A program made the translations under genes and the position numbers. A stretch of 64,000 nucleotides of DNA from Candidatus Dojkabacteria bacterium (GTDB lineage Bacteria; Patescibacteriota; Dojkabacteria; JAOAGR01), in the NCBI GenBank assembly GCA_026415655.1, contig JAOAGR010000002.1, positions 131,237 to 195,236 of the forward strand, read 5' to 3'. The notes under the pieces were generated by a model. That model did not search any database and had not been told where the DNA came from. It saw only the letters and a list, made by a program, of their open reading frames with translations. Of the stretch, positions 20,568 to 41,483 are shown piece after piece; positions within the stretch are counted from its first letter, which is position 1; every line of letters begins with the position of its first letter.

Positions 20568-22778
20568 ATGTATAAAAATATTAGATTTTTCAAAAAATTT
20601 AAAAATATTTTTAACTCATTAAACCATAAAGCCTTTTTAATTTTTGTTTTATTGATAATTATTGTTTTGACTGCTACAACTGTGATATTTTTTGCTCGAG
20701 GTAAACAGTATACATATCATACAATTCCACCTATGCAAGACAAAGATAAGAATTTATCCGGTAATGACATGGATAACATAGATAACAATCGTAATAGTGA
20801 AGAGAATCAGCTAAAAAAAGAATTAGAAAAAAAGTTTATAGAAAAATTTGAAACTTATACTGGGTTAGATTGGGAGAAATACTATAAATTTTTGTCCAAT
20901 ACATCTTATATGCTTATAAATTCTTATTTATTTACGGGGGCAGGTGTGTTTCAAGATTCCGATTATACTAATGAAATTATTAGATTATTAAATTATCGTG
21001 ATTCTATTCATGATTATTTCGCACTAAAAAAAACTAATTCAAATCAATTTCGTTATACAAGTTGTAAATTGGAAAGTGTTGATAGGTTAACGATATTGGA
21101 TATGCCGGTTAAAGATTATAATTATTTGTTAAATTATGCACATAATGTTCCTTATATTAATGATTTTAAGGAAGGACTCGAAACAGACTATGCATCCTCA
21201 AATAAATTAGAGCAAATTTTAGGTTCTAATGCTAATTTCAAAGTATTGTCTGGAGTTAATAATTCAATTAATTATGCAAAAGCTGTTTTGTATTCTCTAG
21301 ATTCAACTCAAAGATATACTGTTAATTCAATCAATTTTTATGGTTCAACATATGATCCTTTTAGTGTGAATTATACGGTCGATAAGTATGTGGATGGCCA
21401 TTTTGAGGCTGCGGAATTTTTTAGAGGTAATTATTATTTTTGGTTTAATAGTCCAGAATTAAAATTTGAAATTCAGGATAATAATTATGTACTGATTTAC
21501 GATAAGAATGAAGACTTTTTAAAGGTAAATTACATCTTTGATAGTAATTTTGATCTGAAACAAGTGAATTTAATTGTGCAAAATTCAAACGATCGAGATG
21601 AAAGAATAATTATGTCGGTATCCTGTAATCATGATGTAGTCTCGTTTGATGAAATAAAGACAAAATTTAACCAGATATATTCACAGCTGGAAAATCAGAC
21701 CAATTTCAGATCATATAATTTTGATAATCTTGATGAGGTCAAATATTATAATTTGTCTGAGGTAGTATCAGAATTTCCATTTATTTCAATTAATGATAAT
21801 CCGTTTTTATATCAATTTAATAAAAATAATACCAAGTATGATAAATATTTAGGGGACATTTATAATATACAACTTAAAGGATCGAGAATAAGTCCAATAA
21901 AAATTTCAGAGTCTTCTTCTTTGTATATAAATTCAATAGATTATTCCATATCGTACAACCCAAATGGTGTTGGTTTAATGAACAGTTGTGGTACTTATAC
22001 GTTGTTTTTGGAAGGTTTCGGGAATATAGAGTTGGAATGTAACAAGTTGCATATAGAATTAAGTGAAGAATATAAAAATAGATTGATTAGTGAAAATAAA
22101 AGTTTTCATAGTTATAGGATTAAAACTGATATAAGTAAGAGATTTGGATACCAACCTGCCAATATATACATATACCCAAAATCATATGAAGCTCAAAAGA
22201 AATTAGAAGAAAGAAAGATAAGGTTAAAATTATTAAATACAAATGAGGTTAAAAATTTGGATGAAAAATATAGAAATATAATAATTCATCTATACAATGC
22301 AAATAGAAATCTAGTTTTTAATAATATATCTAAGGAAGAATTAAGGACGAATGTAATATTAAAAAATGATTTTAATACATCCTTTAGTAAACTTTTGGAA
22401 CCTAATGATAAACAAAAAAACTGCTATGCATTTTTTGATAATGTAAATAAATTTGATGTAAAATTGTTTAATGTATTAGAAATTCAAGATATTGAAAGAT
22501 ATTTTCTAAAGTGTGCAACGGGTATATCTAATGGTTATCAAATGATATTACAATATAAAGACAATGATGAGGATTTTTTTGATGTATATGTTATTTACTC
22601 AAATGAATACGTAGAAAAAATTGTCAATTTTTATGTAAATTCTGATTTATACAAAAAAGACCAAAAAATAAGGGGAATGCAATATAAGAAACTTGGTGAT
22701 ATGTATATATTTATATACAGCGACAAAGCAAAAGAAAAGGTAACTGAGGTGTTAAATGATATTCAATTAGTAGAATAG
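20568..22778 (+). CDS. Large type-II membrane-anchored hypothetical protein
   Basis: 736 aa with an N-terminal signal-anchor (AFLIFVLLIIIVLTATTVIFFA). C-terminal region carries a Cys-bracketed motif (SCGTYTLFLEGFGNIELECNKLH) also seen in 23301..25949 and 26529..27335. No known catalytic motif. Confidence 0.6.
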   Translation: MYKNIRFFKKFKNIFNSLNHKAFLIFVLLIIIVLTATTVIFFARGKQYTYHTIPPMQDKDKNLSGNDMDNIDNNRNSEENQLKKELEKKFIEKFETYTGLDWEKYYKFLSNTSYMLINSYLFTGAGVFQDSDYTNEIIRLLNYRDSIHDYFALKKTNSNQFRYTSCKLESVDRLTILDMPVKDYNYLLNYAHNVPYINDFKEGLETDYASSNKLEQILGSNANFKVLSGVNNSINYAKAVLYSLDSTQRYTVNSINFYGSTYDPFSVNYTVDKYVDGHFEAAEFFRGNYYFWFNSPELKFEIQDNNYVLIYDKNEDFLKVNYIFDSNFDLKQVNLIVQNSNDRDERIIMSVSCNHDVVSFDEIKTKFNQIYSQLENQTNFRSYNFDNLDEVKYYNLSEVVSEFPFISINDNPFLYQFNKNNTKYDKYLGDIYNIQLKGSRISPIKISESSSLYINSIDYSISYNPNGVGLMNSCGTYTLFLEGFGNIELECNKLHIELSEEYKNRLISENKSFHSYRIKTDISKRFGYQPANIYIYPKSYEAQKKLEERKIRLKLLNTNEVKNLDEKYRNIIIHLYNANRNLVFNNISKEELRTNVILKNDFNTSFSKLLEPNDKQKNCYAFFDNVNKFDVKLFNVLEIQDIERYFLKCATGISNGYQMILQYKDNDEDFFDVYVIYSNEYVEKIVNFYVNSDLYKKDQKIRGMQYKKLGDMYIFIYSDKAKEKVTEVLNDIQLVE

Positions 22779-22807: not shown

Positions 22808-23326
22808 ATGAATAAATCTTTTGAAAAATTCTACGAAGAAACCTTTAAAGAAGCTTACAGATATCTCTATATGCGAATTAACAACGTGAGTGACGTGGAA
22901 GATATACTGCATGACGCGTATTTAGTAATTTACGAAAGCTATAAAGATAAATTAGATAGTAATGAAAGTAAAAAAATATTGTTTGGTATTCTTCAAAAGA
23001 AATATGTAGATTATATTAGACTAAAATATAGAGAATATGAAAATATAGAGTATATTGACAATTATGCAGGGGAACAAAACAATGTGATTTCGCATTTGGA
23101 CTTAGCCCAATTAGAAGACAAGCTGAGGGATTATATTTATAAATTAGAAAAAAAGTATCCCAAATTGATGATTATCCTTAGAATGAGACTTTTGGATAAA
23201 CTTAGCAGAAGAGAAATCGCAGAAGTCTTAAATATTACTGAAGATCATGTTCATACCTACCAAAAGAGAGCTATAGCAATAATAAAAAAAATTATTACAA
23301 ATGAAAAAGATGATGAAAATAAATAA
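22808..23326 (+). CDS. ECF-type RNA polymerase sigma factor (sigma-70 family, group 4)
   Basis: Region 2 (DVEDILHDAYLVIYESY) and region 4 helix-turn-helix (LSRREIAEVLNITEDHVHTYQKRAIAIIKK). Length 172 aa. Confidence 0.78.
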   Translation: MNKSFEKFYEETFKEAYRYLYMRINNVSDVEDILHDAYLVIYESYKDKLDSNESKKILFGILQKKYVDYIRLKYREYENIEYIDNYAGEQNNVISHLDLAQLEDKLRDYIYKLEKKYPKLMIILRMRLLDKLSRREIAEVLNITEDHVHTYQKRAIAIIKKIITNEKDDENK

Positions 23327-25949
23327 AGATAAAAAATTGTACCCCCAAGACGATATATATAGTGAAATGGATCAAGTTGATCAAAAAATTGAAGAAATTC
23401 TCACATCTGCTTTGGTAACCGTGCCGGCAGATGAGGATATATTATCTGCGCAGATAAGGGTAAAAAATCAGCTTGTCCATTCGATAAATAGAAAAGCTAT
23501 GGATCAAAAAAATTTTGTAGCTCAAGTTTTTCCTGAAGAAGGAGCGGCTACACAAAACGATAATATTCAGACTTCTCAAACAAAGCCCAATGCATTTATG
23601 AATCTTTTTCATAATAAACCATTTGTTATATTTTCTACATTGACATTGATAACTATTGTCACATTATCAGGGATAGGTATTTATTACTTAAACACAACAA
23701 AAAATAATCAAGATACATCTACGGAATTTGTAAATAGAGCAAATAAAAGTGGGGATATTGTTACCCTGGCAAAGGAAAGATTTAAACAATTATATGGAAT
23801 TGAATATGATGACTATGTAAAAGTAGCATCATCAATAGATGCATCATCGAATCCTAAAGAAGGGTTAAAATCAATGCTAGCTTCAACAGGACGAACAAAC
23901 CAAAGAATGATCATGGCACAAGAACGACCAGAGGTACAAAATATCTTGGATAATGTTAATACAACACAAAATAAAGGGGTTTTATATAGGTATACCGTAG
24001 AAATGAACAAGGCAGACTATACGAAGTATACGGATGTGTATATCCCCACAGATACTGCTTATTTTGGTCTACATGATTTTATCCGTTATCCGGAGGCGAA
24101 TTATGAATATTATATGTCTTTGCATTCCACAGGTACTGTTGTCAGGAGAGGTAAAGATATTCTATATGCCACCGTATCAGATGTTTCCGCTCAGGGTAAT
24201 AGCTATCATGTGCGGTCATTAGAATACAGAAATGGCAAACTTGCATTAGAAGGCAACTATATACATCCAAAGGGATTCTATGAAGAACAGAATATTTCGT
24301 ACATCCAATTTACTCCTGATTATATACTGTTACAAAAATTAGAAAGTAAAGATGAAAACATAAAAGATTTAGGAGTAAAAGATATTGATGGAGTACAATA
24401 TAGGATTATTGAAGAAAGTATTAACGTTTTGGGACCAGTATATTCTCCACCTCCACCCGCAGAGAACACGGAACAGGAAGAGTCAATTGTTTATCCAACG
24501 GGACCTGAGATTATCATTAGAAAAACGTATTATATAAATCCAAATAGTCTACAGATAGTAAAAACAGAATTTAGTGAAGATAATGATTTATTATTCTCTA
24601 TAAAATATGAAGAACACAAGATAATCGATAATACTTATATTCAAAATAATTATAATGAAGTAAAAGATTCTATCCGAAAATTAGATAAAGAAATCAAGAC
24701 ATTTGACTTTGGTGCAGTATATGATATTAAAGCTTATCCTAAATTAGCAGATTTTGTGAAAAAATATCCTGTATTCACTATTGATACTGATGGAAGGGAG
24801 AGATTCAATTTCTATGATAACGATAGTGAACAGGCTAGACTTTATAATGAGTACTTTAGATTGTATTCGTCACAAGATTTTGACCCATCTTATGAAAGCT
24901 CCGGCGAGGCCTTGGTTGTAGATGAAGGTTCTCTTGCTCATTTTGGATCGATGCGTCTTGGGATCGAGTATTATAAGTCGGGTCAAAAGAGATCAAACAT
25001 AGTATGTACTGGTAAAAAGTCCACAATCAACATAGATGGTATTGGTCAATTTGAGGCTGAGGTGTGTAAATATTCGTATGATGATGTAATGACAATTCAA
25101 ATGGAAGAAGGTTCTACGTCTCCAAACAATTCCCTGTTACCAGTTGAAAACGCAGATGTAGTATATAAATTATCCCAAAAGATAGGCTCGTATCCACCAT
25201 ACGATATCTACATATCATTTGGTGGATTGCAAAACGATAACTGGACTGTTAATTACATAAATGAGCAAAAGGCAAAACAATATGATGATGAGATTAGACA
25301 AATTATAACTATGGAGACTGTCATGTACGGTGGTCAGATTGACCAGTCAAAAATCTCCGGATTTATAGCAACACCGGTAGAATTTGTAAAAAAAGAAAAT
25401 TATCAGGTATATACTCAAACATTTAGTGCGCCATATTATGGTAAGGAAGAAACATGCGTCATACCGTTGCAAAATGCGAAAAAAAATCCAGATTTGTTGG
25501 AATATCTTTATATGCAACATAAATTTGTACTAGATTGTATCGCACTAATAGCAGATGGTTATATGCTAAGTTATCATGCATCATTGAGCCCAGAGATGTA
25601 TGAAATTCCAACCGTTAATGAGATTGGTGAATCCAGCCCTGTTGCTAAAAACGTTCAAGTAGCACAGTCAAGTTTTGATGTATATATCTTCGAAAAAACA
25701 GATTTTACATATTCGGCTTTGGAGTTTTATATAAATTATTTAAAAAATAAATCTGAAGATGAGACTCTTATTCCGGTTTATAAGGAAGTTAATGGATATA
25801 TTGTAGTGATAGTTAACTCTGTTTTTGGACCATACGATCTAGCTGATGATATCGTTGGAAGTAGAAGGAGACTACTAGAAAATATACGCCTATTAAGCGA
25901 ACAAGAGAAAAAGCAATTCTTTGATATGCTTAATGAGCAATCTAAATAA
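23301..25949 (+). CDS. Putative anti-sigma factor: ~110 aa cytoplasmic N-terminus, single TM, ~750 aa extracytoplasmic domain
   Basis: Overlaps the ECF sigma gene by 26 nt. TM at ~aa 108-130 (FVIFSTLTLITIVTLSGIGIYYL). C-terminal Cys-bracketed motif (VCTGKKSTINIDGIGQFEAEVC) shared with neighbouring proteins. Confidence 0.55.
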   Translation: MKKMMKINKDKKLYPQDDIYSEMDQVDQKIEEILTSALVTVPADEDILSAQIRVKNQLVHSINRKAMDQKNFVAQVFPEEGAATQNDNIQTSQTKPNAFMNLFHNKPFVIFSTLTLITIVTLSGIGIYYLNTTKNNQDTSTEFVNRANKSGDIVTLAKERFKQLYGIEYDDYVKVASSIDASSNPKEGLKSMLASTGRTNQRMIMAQERPEVQNILDNVNTTQNKGVLYRYTVEMNKADYTKYTDVYIPTDTAYFGLHDFIRYPEANYEYYMSLHSTGTVVRRGKDILYATVSDVSAQGNSYHVRSLEYRNGKLALEGNYIHPKGFYEEQNISYIQFTPDYILLQKLESKDENIKDLGVKDIDGVQYRIIEESINVLGPVYSPPPPAENTEQEESIVYPTGPEIIIRKTYYINPNSLQIVKTEFSEDNDLLFSIKYEEHKIIDNTYIQNNYNEVKDSIRKLDKEIKTFDFGAVYDIKAYPKLADFVKKYPVFTIDTDGRERFNFYDNDSEQARLYNEYFRLYSSQDFDPSYESSGEALVVDEGSLAHFGSMRLGIEYYKSGQKRSNIVCTGKKSTINIDGIGQFEAEVCKYSYDDVMTIQMEEGSTSPNNSLLPVENADVVYKLSQKIGSYPPYDIYISFGGLQNDNWTVNYINEQKAKQYDDEIRQIITMETVMYGGQIDQSKISGFIATPVEFVKKENYQVYTQTFSAPYYGKEETCVIPLQNAKKNPDLLEYLYMQHKFVLDCIALIADGYMLSYHASLSPEMYEIPTVNEIGESSPVAKNVQVAQSSFDVYIFEKTDFTYSALEFYINYLKNKSEDETLIPVYKEVNGYIVVIVNSVFGPYDLADDIVGSRRRLLENIRLLSEQEKKQFFDMLNEQSK

Positions 25950-25967: not shown

Positions 25968-26369
25968 ATGGAAAGAATAAAATTAAATCAAATGAACAAA
26001 AAATCAATATTTTTAGCAATTGGATTACTGGCTATTTTGGCTATTGGATCAATTATTCTCTATTTATCTTTTTTACAAAATCAAAGTTCATCAGGGGTAG
26101 TATCCGAAAACACCGAATCTGGCAAAATAGATGAAACGAGTGATTCTATTGATGCCAAGCAGACACCGTTTTCGGAATTAGAGAAAACTGATTTTGAGAT
26201 TGATTCGAATCTACGAACAGTGGAAGGTATAAAAGATAATATCTTAAATTATATTTTCGGTGATGAAGAGTTCAGAAATGAGAATTTTTATAGTCTGATG
26301 TCTGATACGATTAATCTAGCATTAATAAATAAGTATGATATTAATGCTTTTGTCCCTCGTTTTGATTGA
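25968..26369 (+). CDS. Type-II membrane-anchored hypothetical protein. Probably the N-terminal part of a single gene continuing into 26529..27335 across an in-frame TGA.
   Basis: 133 aa with an N-terminal TM (IFLAIGLLAILAIGSIILYLSF). Its TGA stop (26367-26369) is followed by 53 stop-free codons in the same frame leading into the next ORF. Confidence 0.5.
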   Translation: MERIKLNQMNKKSIFLAIGLLAILAIGSIILYLSFLQNQSSSGVVSENTESGKIDETSDSIDAKQTPFSELEKTDFEIDSNLRTVEGIKDNILNYIFGDEEFRNENFYSLMSDTINLALINKYDINAFVPRFD

Positions 26370-26528
26370 GCAAAGAAAATAGATGTAACAAATTATGAAA
26401 GAAATTTCATTGAAATAAATTATACTGTTAAGGAAACTAATAGTACTAATTTCAAGTTTAGATGTACACAAGTTTTAAATGTATATTTAATAGCAAATAT
26501 ATGTAAAGACTCAAATGATCGCATTAAT

Positions 26529-27335
26529 TTGGAGAAAAGTGCCCTTCATTTTGTGAAAAAAGCTTCAGACCAGATTAATTATAAATTTGTACAACGAATA
26601 AATGAAAATAATGATAACTACGGATATAAATATATGATTTATCAGTATCCATATTATAATGTTGCACTTTACAATATTTTTCAAGAATATGCTTATATTT
26701 ATGAAAATATTGATGAAGCACTAATAGATAATACTGGGAACAAATTTGTTGTAATGGTAAATATTGATGATGTGCAAATTGTTTACGATCATCCCAAGTT
26801 ATTTGAAAGCAATAATGAAGAAGCGGAGAGATATTTTGATATGATAATAAATGAAATATCAGAACAACAATCTATTGTAAAGGTTGAGGAAAATTATATT
26901 TTTAATATTGATGAATTTGTAAATATGTATCCTGTTTTGGTTCCACAAGGTAAATTTAAAGAATTTGCGTATTTCAGTAATTATAAAATGGGGGTTGCAA
27001 ATATGAATTATGGAGATTCTACCACTATCAGGATTATTCTTGAATTCTACAAGTACGGTAGTCAAGGAAATGAGAATGTAAATTGTTCAGATGAAAACGG
27101 TACAAAACAAATAATTATCGAAGGAAAATCATTTAACGCCAATGTATGTCGAGGTGATAGAATAGCTGGTAATGTAGTAAAGCTTACCAATGTAAAAGGT
27201 TATGATATTTATGTTCAGGCTGTTGATTATTCAATGAATCCTGAAGATAACTCAGTGGATATCATGCCAAGAGAATTTCGCTTTATGACCGCAGATGAAT
27301 CGCCTAAATATGAAATGAAAGTGCAACAATCATAA
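26529..27335 (+). CDS. Hypothetical secreted-domain protein (TTG start as called; same frame as 25968..26369)
   Basis: 268 aa with no signal peptide of its own. Carries a Cys-bracketed motif (NCSDENGTKQIIIEGKSFNANVC) similar to the two larger neighbours. Confidence 0.5.
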   Translation: MEKSALHFVKKASDQINYKFVQRINENNDNYGYKYMIYQYPYYNVALYNIFQEYAYIYENIDEALIDNTGNKFVVMVNIDDVQIVYDHPKLFESNNEEAERYFDMIINEISEQQSIVKVEENYIFNIDEFVNMYPVLVPQGKFKEFAYFSNYKMGVANMNYGDSTTIRIILEFYKYGSQGNENVNCSDENGTKQIIIEGKSFNANVCRGDRIAGNVVKLTNVKGYDIYVQAVDYSMNPEDNSVDIMPREFRFMTADESPKYEMKVQQS

Positions 27336-27354: not shown

Positions 27355-27392
27355 AATAAAAAGGCAGGATTTATTCCTGCCTTTTGTTTGTT
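27355..27392. terminator. Bidirectional rho-independent terminator between convergent genes
   Basis: aaaaAGGCAGGatttattCCTGCCTtttgttt: a 7-bp GC-rich stem flanked by A-run and T-run. Sits between the 26529..27335 (+) and ilvE (-) ends. Confidence 0.7.
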
Positions 27393-28483: not shown

Positions 28484-28619
28484 TTTATTATTTTCACTAG
28501 TTCTCGAAATTCTGAGCATATTTAAAGCCGTATTAATCTAGATTGTATATTTCCAACTATTTAACTATTTAGTTATTGGATCGCACGCGTATATTCAAAC
28601 TCTTGCCAATTTTGGCACG

Positions 28620-29465
28620 CTAAAAAATCACACAATTTATTTATTGGCAAATAATACCGTAAGATGAACACCAAATAATTAATAACACTAGCTATTGCAA
28701 ATATCTTTTCTGTTCTTTTCGGTGGTATGCCAGCTACTGCTGCTTTAGCTTGAATTTCCTTAAATATAAAATCTGATGTTACTTCAAGAGTATCCGGTAT
28801 TATTAATGTTCTTGGAATAATAATTTCAATGTTTTTCCTGAGTTACTTTCGTTTTATACCCATGGCTGTAATAGTATCTATCCTTGTTTATGTATCTGTA
28901 TAGATGATAGAGAAGGAGCATTTTACTAAACTATATAAATATGAAAAAGAAAGTTTCTTATATCCTTGATCGTTGCTTTTTTCGTTATTATCACTGATCC
29001 GATGATTGGTATTTTATTAGGTGTTTATTTGTTATTACTATTACAGATTAATCGTATATCGAAGGGGATATATGAGATAAGAGAAAATGCATTGTGCGAT
29101 GATGGATCATCGAAAACTATGAAAAAAATCCATCTGTACTTCTTTATTCTTTCAAAGGTAAATTAATTTATATCAATGCAAAGGTACACTTATTACGTTT
29201 TGAAGAAAACTTTGCTAAATATAAAGTTATTATATTTCGTTTTCGAGAGGTATACTATATCGATATTGATGGAATAGAGGCTATAGACGAAATGACTAGT
29301 ATATGTAAATCACGAGGACAGCAAGTAATCTTGACAAGTGTGCCGGATCGAATCAAAAGCTTATTAGTGGAATGTTCGCATTATTACGATGAAATTGAGA
29401 AACAAAATCTAATTTTCCCTAAAACTGAGATGGCCTTACGATTCTTAGGCGTACCAATAAAATAG
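28620..29465 (+). pseudogene. Remnant of a SulP/SLC26-family anion permease. C-terminal TM region plus STAS domain, broken by at least 3 stops/frameshifts; N-terminal half missing.
   Basis: Successive frames read ...ITLAIANIFSVLFGGMPATAALA* (SulP GG-P-T motif), ISLNIKSDVTSRVSGIINVLGIIISMFFLSYFRFIPMAVIVSILVYVSV*, MIVAFFVIITDPMIGILLGVYLLLLL... and STAS-like ...VIIFRFREVYYIDIDGIEAIDEMTSICKSRGQQVILTSVPDRIKSLL... Confidence 0.8.
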
Positions 29466-30015
29466 TAGATAGAATTCTTAATTTAAAAGGATTATCTATA
29501 TATTCAATATAATAATTTTAGAATTTTGAAATGATATACTTTTAATAAGATCAGAAAAATGAACTGATATAAGGTTGCTATTTAACTCTAGAGTGAAGTA
29601 TTGAAGGAGAGGGTTGTATCTTACAGAATATTATTGAGAATATTTTTGTTAAACAAGGTGAATTTCGATATTAAAAGGTTAGGTGCTAATGCATCATGGT
29701 AATGGTAAACACCTTATAGTTATTAATTATCCAATTTTCATAAATAGATTATAGACTTAATGTAATTCGACAATGGGGAATAATATGATTTTTATAAGAC
29801 GTTCCAAAATTATGGGTTGCCAATAACGATCTTAATATATAGTTTGCATCCAAAAAAGACTAAATGATTCTGTTTCCTGGTGATAAACGTGGATTATAAT
29901 ACACAAAATTACTTTATGCGTTAATATTTACGAATTTATTAGTACTGATGTGGTTTGAATCAATTAATTGTGGACATTTTAATATTGTAAATTTTATTAA
30001 AAGTGCTAAACTACA

Positions 30016-31399
30016 TTGATGTCGAATGATAACTACGTTAATCAAATAGTTTCACAGCTACAAGCTGGCATTCCAGAGCAACAAATCTACAACAACCTAA
30101 TAGCTAGTGGAATTTCAAATGATGCAGCCATAAATTTGTTGAATAATGCCAAATATTTGATGTCTTCCATCCAAAATTCGTCTCCTCAGGGATCATCGGG
30201 TCAGTTTAATTCTAATTTTCAGAATAGTGTTCCTAATATGCAATATTCTGGACAACCAGGTCCTAGTCCTGTGAATTTTATGTCGCCTAATTTACAACCT
30301 AATAACCACATTCCAAATAACATTAATTATCCATTGGAAAGCATGAGTTCAAATACTGCAGGAGGATTTGGTATGAATATGCTAATAGTTGGACTTTTGA
30401 TTTTTGGAGTTTTGCTGTCTTTTGTCTCATATCTTGGACTGGCGTTTCCAAACCTAGATTTAAATGGATTTGAACTGTCAAAATTTTTTTGGTTGGTTGG
30501 TGTCTTATCATTAGTATTATTTATCATTCCCTCCGCAATTTTGTTATTCGTTAATAAAAATAAAATATCTAATTTTTTAGTTGTGGTAATAAGTGTGTTT
30601 TTGTCGATGTTTTTGGTACTTGCAAATACAGGTGCTGGGGCATTTTTGTCATTTAGAGATTCTTCTGCACAAAATCAAGAGAACAACACTAATTTGTCTA
30701 AGAATGATGATGAAAAGACGCAAAAAGAGAAAAAAGACGATCAAAAGTCTAACCCTTCACCAACAAATACTCCAAAAAAAAACTCCAACATTCACTCCCA
30801 CTCCTACTCCTACAGCGAGACTTACACCTACGAGAACAGCTCCAATACCAACTCAAGGTCCTGACTATCAAGAATATTTAAATTACTTAGAAAACAATAC
30901 TTATCGTTATACTAATACACAAAATAGATTTTCTTTGAGGATTCTCAATACTTTAAGAAAAGTGTTTACAGATAATACCGATCCTAATAATTACTCAGAA
31001 ACATTTGGTTCTTCTGACGGTAATACATCTTTATCAATTATATATGGTAAAAATCAAAATAATTCCAATGATTTTAGAAATGTATATAGTTTATTGAATG
31101 ATATTGAAGATTCAATAAAATCATCAAATAAGAATCTTGGTGTTACTTGTAATGTTCAAGATGTAAAAGTAGAATATGTTGTTTGTCAGTATGTTACGAC
31201 TCTTCCAAATGGAAAGTATGCATATGTGGTTCAAACTGTTATACCAGATCAGAGAGATTATTCAGGTATTGTTGTGTTGACCGGACTTTTTTTGATACAA
31301 AATCCAGAAGCAGCGGAGAATTTGTTCAATGAAGAAAAATTTGCTTTATTTATAATAAGTATAGGGGTTTATTCAGCTTATACCATTGAATTTAATTGA
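30016..31399 (+). CDS. Membrane/surface protein split by a +1 frameshift at an A9 tract (30774-30782). N/Q-rich N-terminus, TM helices, Pro/Thr linker, C-terminal globular domain.
   Basis: Track ORFs 30016..30864 and 30593..31399. The PT-rich linker ...SPTNTPKK continues as TPTFTPTPTPTARLTPTRT... only in the +1 frame after the A9 run. An A8 allele would give one continuous ~465 aa protein. Confidence 0.6.
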
Positions 31400-32254: not shown

Positions 32255-33331
32255 TTGTTTTGCATTGTGAATAGGCTTTTAATAATAGACATTATTAGGG
32301 GACACTTATTACTTGCTGTAATATGGGATCATCTAGCCTATCTTATAGGACCATCGATCTTTGCTTACTACAATTATTTTGGTCTTTTGTGGGTATCCGC
32401 GGCAGAGGGATTTGTGATTATTTCAGGTTTTTTGTTGGGTTATTTATTTCTATATAAGGGTAGGTATTCAAGCAAAGAGTTTATCAAGATAATTTCAAAA
32501 AGGATAGTGTTATTATACTCAATATCTGTTGTATCAACAATCTTGGTTTCTATCTTTTTTTGGGGCGGAAACAAACTTGAATTAAGTGGAATATGGCGTA
32601 GTAATCGGCCTCGAGAGTTAGATTTTTTTGAATTAGTTTTATATTCGGTGCTTTTTATCCATCACTTTGGTTGGATGGATATTTTTGTGCTTTATGTATG
32701 GTTGTTTTTGATTGCTTTAGCGATACTTCCTATTATGAAAAAGCATAAATTCTCTTATATAATGGTTTTAATTGTCTCTTTTTTGATCTGGTTATTTGAT
32801 AATGTATATCGTTTAGAGTTAAATCTTATACAGGTTAGCTCATTTAGACTTCTATCATGGCAGTTTTTGTTTACTATTAGTTTAGTTTTAGGTATGCATT
32901 TTGAAAGGTTACGAGATATTTTAATCTACTTTTATAAAAAAAATATATTACGCATTTTTGTAATAGTTGCATTTATAATTTTTTTTATTTTGGGAATCAT
33001 ATTTCCATATATGAAGAATGATCTTCTTTTAATTTTATTCTCAAAAGAATTTGTCGGCTTGGGTAGGCTGATTTTATCGTTTTTTTGGTTATATTCTGTT
33101 GGGATAATATTGAAAATTTTGTCTGATAGAATAAATTTCTTGGGTAGTACGTTATCCTACATCGGTAAAGAATCTCTTTATGTTTATGCGGTACATGCCG
33201 TCATTATTACTTTTTTGGATAAAATATTTATTAGTGATTTATTTCTAAATAGTTTATGTGTATTTTTAATAACGATATTTATATATTTCCTTGTTTATTT
33301 AAAACATAAATTTTTGAAAAGATTGGGTTAA
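32255..33331 (+). CDS. Acyltransferase family 3 (Acyl_transf_3/OpgC-like) integral membrane protein
   Basis: N-terminal IDIIRGHLLLAVIWDH matches the acyltransferase-3 motif (LDxLRGxAALxVVxxH). About 10 TM helices, 358 aa. Confidence 0.6.
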   Translation: MFCIVNRLLIIDIIRGHLLLAVIWDHLAYLIGPSIFAYYNYFGLLWVSAAEGFVIISGFLLGYLFLYKGRYSSKEFIKIISKRIVLLYSISVVSTILVSIFFWGGNKLELSGIWRSNRPRELDFFELVLYSVLFIHHFGWMDIFVLYVWLFLIALAILPIMKKHKFSYIMVLIVSFLIWLFDNVYRLELNLIQVSSFRLLSWQFLFTISLVLGMHFERLRDILIYFYKKNILRIFVIVAFIIFFILGIIFPYMKNDLLLILFSKEFVGLGRLILSFFWLYSVGIILKILSDRINFLGSTLSYIGKESLYVYAVHAVIITFLDKIFISDLFLNSLCVFLITIFIYFLVYLKHKFLKRLG

Positions 33332-36780: not shown

Positions 36781-38049
36781 TCAATTTTGATATTTTTGAT
36801 TAATAATCTCTTCTATTCTTATCAATTCATTGTATTTTGCTACTCTATCTGTACGCGATGGTGCACCGCTTTTTATCTGACCACAATTTGTGCCAACAGC
36901 TAAATGGACAAGTGTTACATCTTCAGTCTCGCCTGATCTATGACTCACTACATTTTTCCAACCAGCATTTTTTGCCATTTTTATTGCTTCTATTGTTTCA
37001 CTTAGAGTACCAATCTGATTCATTTTGACTAATAGTGTATTACACAAGCTATTTTCAATTGCCATCTTAATTCTTTCAGTATTTGTAACAAGTAAGTCAT
37101 CACCAACTATTTGTAAATTATTACCATACTTTTGATTACAAATACGCCAGGATTCAATATCATCCTCACAAAACCAATCTTCAACGCTGATTATTGGATA
37201 TTTTTCATAAAGATAATTAAACCATTCAATCATTTCATCAGAAGTTTTTTCTACACCATCCCTTTTTAATACATACATACCTTTTTCGGCATCAAAAAAC
37301 TCGCTAGCAGCAGCATCAAGTCCTATTGCAAAGTCTATTTCAGGCTTATATCCAGCTAGTTCTACTGCGTTAATGATTGTTTGGATAGCGTTTTCGTTAG
37401 ATTCAAAGATAGGGGCATAGCCACCTTCATTACCTACATTTGTGCTGTATCCATGACTTTTTAATATTTTACCTAAATGGTGATAGACTTCTGCGCACCT
37501 TCTTAGATTTTCACGCCAACTAGAAATATTTATCGGTATTATCATGTATTCTTGTATATCTGTTGCCCAGTCAGCATGCTTGCCTCCATTCATGATATTC
37601 ATCATGGGACGGGGTAGAGAATAGGTTGTGTTTGCTGATATTTCACCGATATATTCAAATAACTCTAAATTTCTGCTATTTGCACTAGCCCATGCATATG
37701 CCAAACTTACCGCAAGGATTGCATTTGCACCGAAGTTTGACTTGTTTTTTGTCCCATCTAGATCTATCAGTCTTTGGTCAAACAATTCTTGTTTATTTGA
37801 TTCAAATCCAAAAAAGTAGGTATTGAATAAGTTATTTATAATATTTACTGCATTTAATACGCCCTTTCCTAGGAATCTTTTAGGATCATTATCACGTTTT
37901 TCTACCGCTTCATAGGAACCTGTAGATGCGCCAGAAGGTACAGATGCCCTGCCTTTGGATCCATCATCTAATATAACTTCAGCTTCTACTGTGGGATTGC
38001 CACGTGAGTCAAGAATTTCTCTGCCAATTATTTTTATAATCTTTGCCAT
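36781..38049 (-). CDS. eno: Enolase
   Basis: MAKIIKIIGREILDSRGNPTVEAEV N-terminus plus the enolase signature region. Length 422 aa. Confidence 0.95.
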   Translation of the reverse strand: MAKIIKIIGREILDSRGNPTVEAEVILDDGSKGRASVPSGASTGSYEAVEKRDNDPKRFLGKGVLNAVNIINNLFNTYFFGFESNKQELFDQRLIDLDGTKNKSNFGANAILAVSLAYAWASANSRNLELFEYIGEISANTTYSLPRPMMNIMNGGKHADWATDIQEYMIIPINISSWRENLRRCAEVYHHLGKILKSHGYSTNVGNEGGYAPIFESNENAIQTIINAVELAGYKPEIDFAIGLDAAASEFFDAEKGMYVLKRDGVEKTSDEMIEWFNYLYEKYPIISVEDWFCEDDIESWRICNQKYGNNLQIVGDDLLVTNTERIKMAIENSLCNTLLVKMNQIGTLSETIEAIKMAKNAGWKNVVSHRSGETEDVTLVHLAVGTNCGQIKSGAPSRTDRVAKYNELIRIEEIINQKYQN

Positions 38050-38275: not shown

Positions 38276-38773
38276 ATGCGCGAAGACTTTTCCTACGCAA
38301 TCGATGAACAAGAGATTGCACGTGTTCTTTGACGATCTATAGATTACTCTGTTCCTCACCCATGCCGTATTGTATTAGGTCCTGATGGAATAAGTTTCTA
38401 TGATACCAATCCTAAATCTGTTACACCTGATGGAAGTAATGAGAATGGTAAAATAGAGTTTACTGGTTGTAGTACAGAAGATGGACGTAATTTACTGGAA
38501 TTATTTAAAGTTATGGTGCAATCAATAGCGGCGGGTTATATTCAATTACCAGATTTAAAGGAAGTAAAGGTTATTAGCACTATTGAGGTAGTTGAAGGAG
38601 CATATCTATTAGCATGCGCAGTCGCAGCATTTGGAGAGAACGATTCACCATTGGCATGTCCAGTAAGATATACAGACAGAATAGAAACGTTGTATAGAGG
38701 GTATGAAGTACCAAACACTTATGAGGCCAGGGTAGACAACAACGGATTTATTCTTCATTTAAAGTATAAATAA
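38276..38773 (+). pseudogene. High-GC-family hypothetical gene (paralog of 4301..5023) interrupted by an in-frame TGA at 38330-38332. The track calls only 38513..38773.
   Basis: ATG 38276 gives MREDFSYAIDEQEIARVL, then TGA, then 60 stop-free in-frame codons (RSIDYSVPHPCRIVLGPDGISFYDT...) joining the called ORF. Paralog similarity spans both sides of the TGA. Elevated GC. Confidence 0.55.
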
Positions 38774-40179: not shown

Positions 40180-40371
40180 ATTGTATCAGATTTTCACTTT
40201 TGTATTACAGTGATTGATTTTAAGAGTTTATTATTAAATATAACTTAAATATTCCAATTGTCAGTTAAAAAAGCGCCGTTAATTAGTAATTAAATAATAA
40301 AATTTCTACTGATAAGTATTTATTGGATTATGAAATTTTTATTGATTAAATAGTTAGAATTCAGTGTATAT

Positions 40372-40400
40372 AAAAAAGCATGCCTAAAAAAGGCATGCTC
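40372..40400 (-). terminator. Rho-independent terminator downstream of rplL
   Basis: On the minus strand: GCATGCC-tttttta-GGCATGC followed by ttttttata. Positioned 20-50 nt after the rplL stop. Confidence 0.7.
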
Positions 40401-40421
40401 TCGAAAATATATTTAATTAGT

Positions 40422-40802
40422 TTACTTCAACGTTACTTTTGCTCCTGCTTCTTCTAGTTTTTTCTTGATTTCTTCAGCTTGTTCTTTTTTAACACCGGAC
40501 ATTACAATAACTGGTGCTGATTCAACTTTGGCCTTTGCTTCTGCCAATCCTAGGCTTTGATCAATCTCTCTCAGAGCTTTGATTACATTCAGCTTCTGAG
40601 CACCAATTTCGGTTAATTCCACATCAAATTCGGTTTTTTCTTCTGCAGCTTCTGCTGCTTGTGCTGGTCCTGCCGCAACTGCCATAACAGGTGCTGCCGC
40701 AGTGACACCAAACTTCTCCTCCATTGCTTTTTTTAGCTCTGCAGCTTCTAGCAAGGTTAGAGAAGCGATTTCTTCTAGTAATTTTTGAATTTTCTCTGAC
40801 AT
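40422..40802 (-). CDS. rplL: 50S ribosomal protein L7/L12
   Basis: N-terminal dimerisation helix, Ala/Glu-rich hinge ([22 protein letters not shown]), C-terminal domain ending ...GAKVTLK. Confidence 0.93.
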
Positions 40803-40805
40803 GAT

Positions 40806-41318
40806 TTATTGATTTTGTTTTTTAGCTACTTCTTCTACGAGATATGCAATATCTCTCATCACAGCATTTATAGATCCAACAACACCGCTTGCTCCAGAGT
40901 CCAAAAGATAAAGTATTTTTGCCAGAGTTTGTTCTCTGGATTCAACTTTGGATAATTTGTCTATTTCGGAACCATCATGTAATGTTCCTTCTACAAAACA
41001 GAAGAGATATTCACATTTTTCCTCTTTTTTTAATGCCGCCAATTTTTTGGCAATTTCAACAAAATCATCATAACAAAAAAATACAAATATCGGTCCTTTT
41101 AGATCTAATTTCGTGGATAAATTTTCATCCGCTGCTATTCTAAAAAGTGTATTTTTAATTAGTGTAAAGTAGCAATTCTTTTCTTTCGCGTATTGCTTCA
41201 ATTCATTAGCCTCTTGACCGTTGAAATTGCCTCTAATAGCAAAAATTGCATTAGATTTAGATATAGAATCCTTATAAGTATCTAAAATAGCTGATTTTTG
41301 TTGTCTTGTTTTTGCCAC
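40806..41318 (-). CDS. rplJ: 50S ribosomal protein L10
   Basis: 170 aa L10-like N-terminus, immediately upstream of rplL. Confidence 0.85.
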   Translation of the reverse strand: MAKTRQQKSAILDTYKDSISKSNAIFAIRGNFNGQEANELKQYAKEKNCYFTLIKNTLFRIAADENLSTKLDLKGPIFVFFCYDDFVEIAKKLAALKKEEKCEYLFCFVEGTLHDGSEIDKLSKVESREQTLAKILYLLDSGASGVVGSINAVMRDIAYLVEEVAKKQNQ

Positions 41319-41483
41319 AACAAGTTATTCGATTTATACAAAACGTCTTCCCCGTAGACGTGAAGTCAAAGAAACTAGGAAAATAAGACTAAAAACCATT
41401 TAAAGTCTCATTAGGTCTTATTTTTGTGCCTAATTTCTCTGACTTTCTGACGTATTATACACAAGAGATAAGTTTAGTTCAAC
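41319..41483 (-). promoter_or_regulatory. Probable rplJ leader (L10/L12 autoregulatory 5' UTR) and/or rpoD terminator region
   Basis: 165-nt untranslated gap between rpoD and rplJ with stem-loop potential (aagactaaaaaccatttaaagtctcattaggtctt). By analogy with conserved L10 leaders; structure not verified. Confidence 0.3.

Follow-up and report, generated by a model that had tools for sequence, protein, structure and literature searches.

Positions 25968-27335 of the window, by which we mean the whole 64-kb stretch of DNA analyzed here, hold a single gene that is cut by an internal stop codon. We give a probability of about 0.8 to the reading that this interval is a recent strain-specific pseudogene, one of several independent inactivations in sister populations, and not a case of stop-codon read-through. 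The plus-strand interval reads in a single frame as 455 sense codons and a terminal TAA (27333-27335), with the TGA at 26367-26369 as its sole internal stop. Mechanical ORF calling divides the frame into a 133-codon ORF that ends at the TGA and a second ORF that runs from a TTG start at 26529 to the TAA that ends at 27335. The 159 nt (53 codons) between the two, 26370-26528, contain no stop and no in-frame start codon. An earlier note on this DNA had pointed to the shared frame and the stop-free 53-codon spacer, and both were confirmed by translating 25968-27335. The note had also argued that such a spacer is improbable by chance. Its figures have to be adjusted, because the GC content of the 64-kb window is 31.2% rather than ~28% and base composition predicts a stop in 1 of 13 codons, but the argument itself holds: the probability of a 53-codon open run is 0.014, and that of the 321-codon open stretch that follows TGA 26367-26369 is ~7e-12. 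Therefore, the continuity of the frame is not due to chance.

Homologs were sought among 5.8e9 proteins, and only three clusters were found: P0001 (99% identity, 371 aa; Logan, SRR34265295), P0002 (70% identity, 435 aa; Logan, SRR24079436) and P0003 (64% identity, 277 aa; NCBI, GCA_964503755.1). P0001 and P0002 are continuous over the TGA position, where they carry Leu and Val, respectively. Intact 455-aa proteins were present among the cluster members: P0006 differs from the window's protein solely by Leu134, and P0007 comes from the 70% lineage. Over the whole gene, Nei-Gojobori estimates of dN/dS between the three lineages were 0.24-0.27; the N-terminal part gave 0.29-0.44 and the second ORF 0.18-0.29. 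The 53-codon spacer gave the lowest values in the gene (0.06-0.17), and we therefore conclude that the spacer is coding sequence. As judged from these alignments, selection has acted to keep the gene over a long time, and the two ORFs are a single gene for a predicted 455-residue membrane-anchored protein, cut by the internal TGA. The earlier note had proposed one ~455-aa membrane-anchored protein and had named orthologs as the place to look. The proposal is borne out by the intact 455-aa alleles, by the continuity of P0001, P0002, P0006 and P0007 across the TGA position, by a sense codon at this site in all relatives and by purifying selection on the spacer.

Codons 1-133 (25968-26366, plus strand) are predicted from the sequence, and from alignment with the continuous orthologs, to encode a basic N-terminus, a signal anchor, a linker rich in Ser, Asp and Glu, and the start of the conserved region. 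The first ORF begins with MERIKLNQMNKKSIFLAIGLLAILAIGSIILYLSF, in which a basic stretch is followed by ~23 hydrophobic residues. This hydrophobic helix, at residues ~13-35, reads as a signal anchor and would give the protein a type-II topology. In the ortholog alignment, the linker after the anchor helix is poorly conserved and the C-terminal part of the protein is the most conserved, with cysteines C179, C373 and C394 invariant. Together, the signal anchor and the invariant cysteines suggest that the protein has a domain outside the cytoplasm; alignment and dN/dS place this predicted conserved body in codons 135-455, which together with the TAA span 26370-27335 on the plus strand. The same segment holds the 53-codon spacer and mechanically called ORFs from TTG 26529 and GTG 26553, and the remnant that starts at GTG 26553 is annotated in NCBI as MCX8034866.1 (P0005; locus tag N3A71_01075, 260 aa). 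AlphaFold2, run on a four-sequence alignment, gave a mean pLDDT of 32 and a pTM of 0.28, and the model is unusable.

A profile search of 1.84e9 cluster representatives returned the family's own representative alone and nothing more distant. Because neither the protein search nor the profile search gave distant matches, the family is taken to be confined to a small CPR clade. Pfam, NCBIfam, PADLOC and PHROGs had no match for the 455-aa protein, nor for a 165-aa ORFan encoded elsewhere in the window. No relative of the 455-aa protein was found in a peptide-pattern scan of metagenomes, and a metagenome scan with a degenerate DNA motif for AVDYSMNP yielded 26 loci with no real homolog among them. 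Species-representative genomes contributed only the already known GCA_964503755.1 contig, and we found no paralogy between the 455-aa protein and the neighboring large membrane proteins. One further candidate, L040, had a weak tblastn match only and was rejected as an unrelated high-GC ORF. We also observed that the taxonomic labels disagree: the 64% relative (GCA_964503755.1), which shares synteny and 64-85% nucleotide identity with the window, is filed as 'uncultured Candidatus Saccharibacteria', and the window's own proteins are filed as 'Candidatus Dojkabacteria'.

In DNA alignments, the codon at the TGA site is TTA in L001, L003 and L007-L013 and GTG in L002, and a T is present at 26368 in all eight near-identical loci from other samples. 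Since all relatives have a sense codon at this site, the window carries a derived T-to-G nonsense mutation at 26368, which changes codon 134 (26367-26369, plus strand) from the ancestral TTA (Leu) to TGA in the context TTGATTGAGC. We compared four near-clonal strain groups, the window's among them, with 99.8-99.95% identity across 20-30 kb. In the gene itself (1,368 nt), the groups differ solely by three disruptive mutations. The window's group has the TTA-to-TGA change; the SRR34265295 group has a -1 deletion at 26123 (codon 52), where the single C of GGCAAAA is lost; and five SRR277300xx runs have a -1 deletion at 26539 (codon 191), where the single G of AAAAGTGCC is lost. The gene is intact in the ERZ3623746/SRR6344962 group, and this sample originates from the Zavarzin hot spring in the Uzon Caldera, Kamchatka (PMC8468003). 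The remainder of the window's gene is identical to the intact allele, and thus the nonsense mutation is very recent. The TGA allele was seen in the window's own assembly alone, with no independent confirmation: an exact look-up of the 133-aa stub gave no record elsewhere.

Lesions were also found in the more distant lineages, so that most of the other genomes have a broken gene, with breaks at different positions. The 64% lineage (GCA_964503755.1) has a -1 deletion near codon 118 of the gene. Within the 70% lineage, SRR24079437 has an intact gene with a GTG start. In its sibling L002 (SRR24079436; 98% identity), a tandem duplication of TTAAAAATTCATTA has taken the place of the start-codon region, at L002 2690-2730 (compared with L018 40-80), so that the GTG start of SRR24079437 is missing.

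The G at 26368 is unique to the window's assembly, and this would fit an error of assembly or consensus calling, or a low-frequency allele, in a strain whose real gene is intact with TTA. The same assembly has other private damaging changes within 32 kb, namely the nonsense change at 38332, a +1 in the A9 run at 30774 and a Cys-to-Phe substitution in enolase at 37139, and a sister assembly at 3.8x coverage shows that data quality varies within the set. However, the other three strain groups have similar numbers of private variants and a similar disruptive share, and these changes fall non-randomly in the same accessory genes. The window's housekeeping genes are all intact. A T-to-G change outside a homopolymer would also be an atypical consensus error. 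Moreover, the -1 deletion at 26539 recurs in five independent runs, which shows that this gene does have genuine loss-of-function alleles. We consider an artefact or a minority variant rather improbable as the source of the TGA.

The distribution of the lesions bears on a second alternative, in which the gene has been functionally split into an anchored 133-aa stub and a separately initiated C-terminal protein that starts at TTG 26529 or GTG 26553. The lesions are all confined to the gene's N-terminal 42% (the start codon and codons 52, ~118, 134 and 191), the C-terminal 260 residues are never hit, and this is the part that is conserved best. The probability that five or six lesions would all fall in the first 42% is ~0.01, which is suggestive, but chance or mutational bias could produce the same result. 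Against a split, none of the 53 codons after the TGA is a start codon, and neither TTG 26529 nor GTG 26553 is preceded by a Shine-Dalgarno-like sequence at a workable spacing (the GTG has a GGAG 18 nt upstream). The C-terminal product would be made without the signal anchor, yet the invariant C179, C373 and C394 suggest extracellular work. Because the positions of the breaks differ between strains, there is no consistent two-gene architecture. A functional split is very unlikely.

UGA is read as Gly in some CPR lineages, the Gracilibacteria and Absconditabacteria (code 25), and as Trp in Mollicutes (code 4). The window resembles these cases: the genome is that of a low-GC CPR bacterium, and a UGA lies in frame inside coding sequence. 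The earlier note had raised read-through of TGA as one of two explanations. Here, TGA behaves as a normal terminator. The window has 38 stop-to-stop ORFs of 200 codons or more; 10 of them end at TGA, 23 at TAA and 5 at TAG, and reading TGA as a sense codon lengthens real genes by a few codons only. The genes for enolase, glycyl-tRNA synthetase (GlyRS) and an ABC ATPase, plus two other genes, terminate at TGA. Aside from the two cases flagged by the note, at 26367 and 38330, we found no internal TGA in ~25 genes examined. Trp is always encoded by TGG in the genes examined, with 20 TGG codons in LeuRS. Because TGA ends conserved genes, Trp is TGG and conserved genes have no internal TGA, neither read-through nor recoding is supported.

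Programmed decoding of the UGA, whether by read-through, by code 4 or 25 or by selenocysteine insertion, would yield a full-length protein, and it has arguments in its favor: the precedent in other CPR lineages, the presence of two in-frame TGAs within one 64-kb window, and a skew among the nonsense mutations across strains, three of four of which are TGA compared with 22% expected (P ~ 0.04; one of two when the two ascertained cases are left out). These arguments are outweighed by several observations. Conserved genes end at TGA at their normal lengths. The residues at the two in-frame TGA sites are Leu or Val (26367) and Trp (38330), never Gly, Cys or Sec, and the TGA at 26367 is not kept even in 99.9%-identical strains. 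The lesions of the same genes in sister strains are frameshifts. The four tRNAs of the 64-kb window are Gly-GCC, Ser-GGA, Cys-GCA and Lys-CTT, with no UCA-anticodon tRNA and no tRNA-Sec among them, and there is no stable or SECIS-like hairpin 3' of TGA 26367 (MFE -9.5 kcal/mol, z = -1.3; no Rfam match). We rejected reassignment to code 4 or 25 because UGA terminates conserved genes, does not occur inside any other gene examined and aligns to different residues, and we rejected a selenoprotein gene because the aligned position holds Leu or Val rather than Cys or Sec and the SECIS hairpin is missing. The resemblance to the known reassignments thus ends with a UGA that aligns to Leu or Val, varies among strains and terminates conserved genes.

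The note had also asked whether interruptions by TGA are in excess. Within the window, these two TGAs, and no TAA or TAG, join long coding-strand segments; the remaining joined segments are antisense artefacts or adjacent same-frame genes. In the strain comparison, lesions also include frameshifts and a TAG. Overall, programmed decoding is highly improbable, and the read-through explanation in the note is not supported: TGA is a normal terminator, and the two TGAs replace different residues. Its other explanation, decay of accessory genes, is supported by the independent lesions in sister strains and in neighboring accessory genes.

The in-frame TGA at 38330 proved to be a real interruption, as the note had stated. 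It lies at 38330-38332 in a 165-codon ORFan (38276-38773, plus strand) between the enolase and cysS genes, and it arose from a TGG (Trp) codon. This gene has three independent disrupted alleles among the strains, and SRR277300xx alone has it intact (P0009). In addition to the window's TGA, there is a GGA-to-TGA change at 38432 in SRR34265295 and a 4-nt deletion at 38558-38561 in ERZ3623746. The ORFan is missing from the 64% lineage, where the spacer between eno and cysS is 219 nt compared with 738 nt in the window. Its GC content is ~37%, above that of its surroundings.

Other accessory genes are disrupted as well. A gene for a 459-aa membrane protein (30016-31399, plus strand) is frameshifted in the window by an extra A: the poly-A tract at 30774-30782 is A9 in the window and A8 in the three other strain groups, and the window's gene is broken into two overlapping frames. 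Phase variation by slippage could explain the A9, and so could a homopolymer error. In the same gene, SRR34265295 has five clustered non-synonymous substitutions within 245 nt (31100-31344), far above the 0.1% background, and this cluster may be a recombination patch or the result of diversifying selection. ERZ3623746, whose assembly coverage is only ~3.8x, has a -1 in a poly-A tract at 22414 of the gene for a 736-aa membrane protein (20568-22778) and a CAG-to-TAG change at 32861 in an Acyl_transf_3 acyltransferase gene. The ortholog of the 736-aa protein in GCA_964503755.1 (L003 4020-6207) is called as three fragments of 97, 105 and 326 aa, and therefore accessory genes are decaying in the 64% lineage too. 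No disruptive change was found in housekeeping genes in the 32-kb strain comparison. Separately, ERZ3623746 (L005) has a dense tract of changes across the L7/L12-L10 genes (40262-41367), of which five are intergenic, seven are synonymous and one is a 5-nt deletion. From its sequence, this tract looks like recombination import from a diverged relative.

The poly-A changes raise the question of reversible phase variation, in which the 25968-27335 gene would be a contingency locus toggled by slippage. On and off alleles do coexist among near-clonal strains, and two neighboring accessory genes are broken by changes in poly-A length (30774-30782 in the window and 22414 in ERZ3623746). However, the lesions of the target gene are a T-to-G substitution, the loss of C in GGCAAAA and the loss of G in AAAAGTGCC, and no lesion of this gene in any lineage falls in a simple repeat. 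The lesions are therefore not readily reversible, and we see next to no likelihood that the locus is phase variable. The gene resembles an ordinary 'internal stop' pseudogene in its single nonsense substitution, its intact sister allele and the normal terminator codon, and it differs in belonging to a tiny ORFan family within three related lineages (searched against 1.84e9 cluster representatives) and in having several independent lesions.

The target gene would be the last in an operon that also encodes an ECF sigma factor and an 882-aa membrane protein. The first gene of this apparent operon (22808-23326, plus strand) encodes an ECF-type sigma factor, with a TIGR02937 sigma70-ECF match at 46.6 bits against a cutoff of 42.9 and a Sigma70_r4 domain. 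The gene that follows (23301-25949, plus strand) overlaps the sigma factor gene by 26 nt, stops 18 nt upstream of the target start and encodes a single-pass membrane protein of 882 aa without any known domain. The 882-aa protein is encoded at the usual place of an anti-sigma factor, and its single-pass topology also fits this role. The order of ECF sigma factor, overlapping single-pass membrane protein, signal-anchored protein and terminator is that of ECF sigma/anti-sigma operons, from which this one differs in that the 882-aa protein has no detectable anti-sigma domain (zf-HC2 or RskA) and no Pfam or NCBIfam match. This partner is full length (870-883 aa) in every fully covered strain and lineage, and one SRR277300xx sample has a +1 at 25802, near the 3' end of the gene. 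A bidirectional intrinsic terminator hairpin at 27359-27385, recognized by its 11-bp stem and a T-run on both strands, closes the target's operon and a convergent ilvE-like gene. A promoter scan was uninformative, with 57 sites compared with 55 expected. Further downstream, ~1.5 kb after the tRNA-Ser gene (28484-30015) contains no ORF longer than 66 aa, and in the 70% and 64% lineages the equivalent spacer measures only 250-400 nt. Rfam had no match to the ORF-poor stretch 28484-30100 even at E<=1, and this DNA may be further decayed or inserted sequence.

In the window's strain, a single T-to-G transversion at 26368 turned Leu-134 from TTA to TGA. Because TGA is a normal terminator in this genome, translation would stop after 133 residues and leave a membrane-anchored 133-residue stub. 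Of the conserved 321-residue body, no more than traces would be made, by near-cognate read-through or by re-initiation, and in the latter case the product would have no anchor. The several independent inactivations indicate that, under present conditions, the cells can do without the gene and may even be better off without it.

As for the reason behind the ongoing gene loss, which we infer from the spectrum of variants, nonsense changes make up ~5.5% of possible substitutions in the compared genes, and indels account for ~8 of ~70 variant events in the 32-kb strain comparison. From these two shares, a neutral change is expected to be disruptive ~16% of the time. The observed disruptive fractions are 3/3 in the target gene and 3/5 in the 165-aa gene. 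The excess in the target gene has P ~ 0.004 (0.026 without the event that first drew attention), and the two genes, with ~13% of the accessory coding sequence between them, took six of the ten disruptive events in 32 kb (P ~ 7e-4; ~0.01 when the two ascertained events are dropped); all of these P values are rough post-hoc estimates on small counts, for a pattern that was noticed before testing. The counts speak for selected loss rather than for simple relaxed constraint, although they are no proof of it.

Clonal populations of pathogens and marine bacteria are known to lose surface or envelope genes in parallel, for example those for phage receptors or antigens. The present case is like these in its multiple disruptive alleles with no accompanying neutral changes, in strains only ~0.1% apart, and in a product that is predicted to be surface exposed. 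Here, however, the counts are small (3/3 and 3/5), and plain relaxed selection may explain them. As a tentative explanation, to which we give less than even odds, the target gene and the 165-aa ORFan have been repeatedly and independently inactivated in natural, near-clonal hot-spring populations of this Dojkabacteria-like CPR bacterium because their loss is advantageous, that is, by parallel adaptive loss. The products might, for instance, be surface proteins that a phage targets or that are of use only when a particular host is present.

The feature is an ordinary strain-specific pseudogene, and the pattern of parallel loss in a CPR bacterium is its sole mildly unusual aspect. For annotation, 25968-27335 should be recorded as one internal-stop pseudogene rather than as two hypothetical proteins, and MCX8034866.1 (260 aa) in the database is a fragment. 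The suspicion of UGA recoding in the window's CPR lineage is removed, which is relevant since related phyla do recode UGA. The comparison also illustrates that public assemblies alone can reveal an allele series, here intact, nonsense and two frameshifts, in uncultured CPR bacteria. Such series single out two clade-specific genes, the loss of which is either tolerated or favored; both are candidates for surface functions that involve the host or phage. If the adaptive-loss explanation is true, the strains would have caught parallel adaptive gene loss in progress in an uncultured episymbiont lineage.
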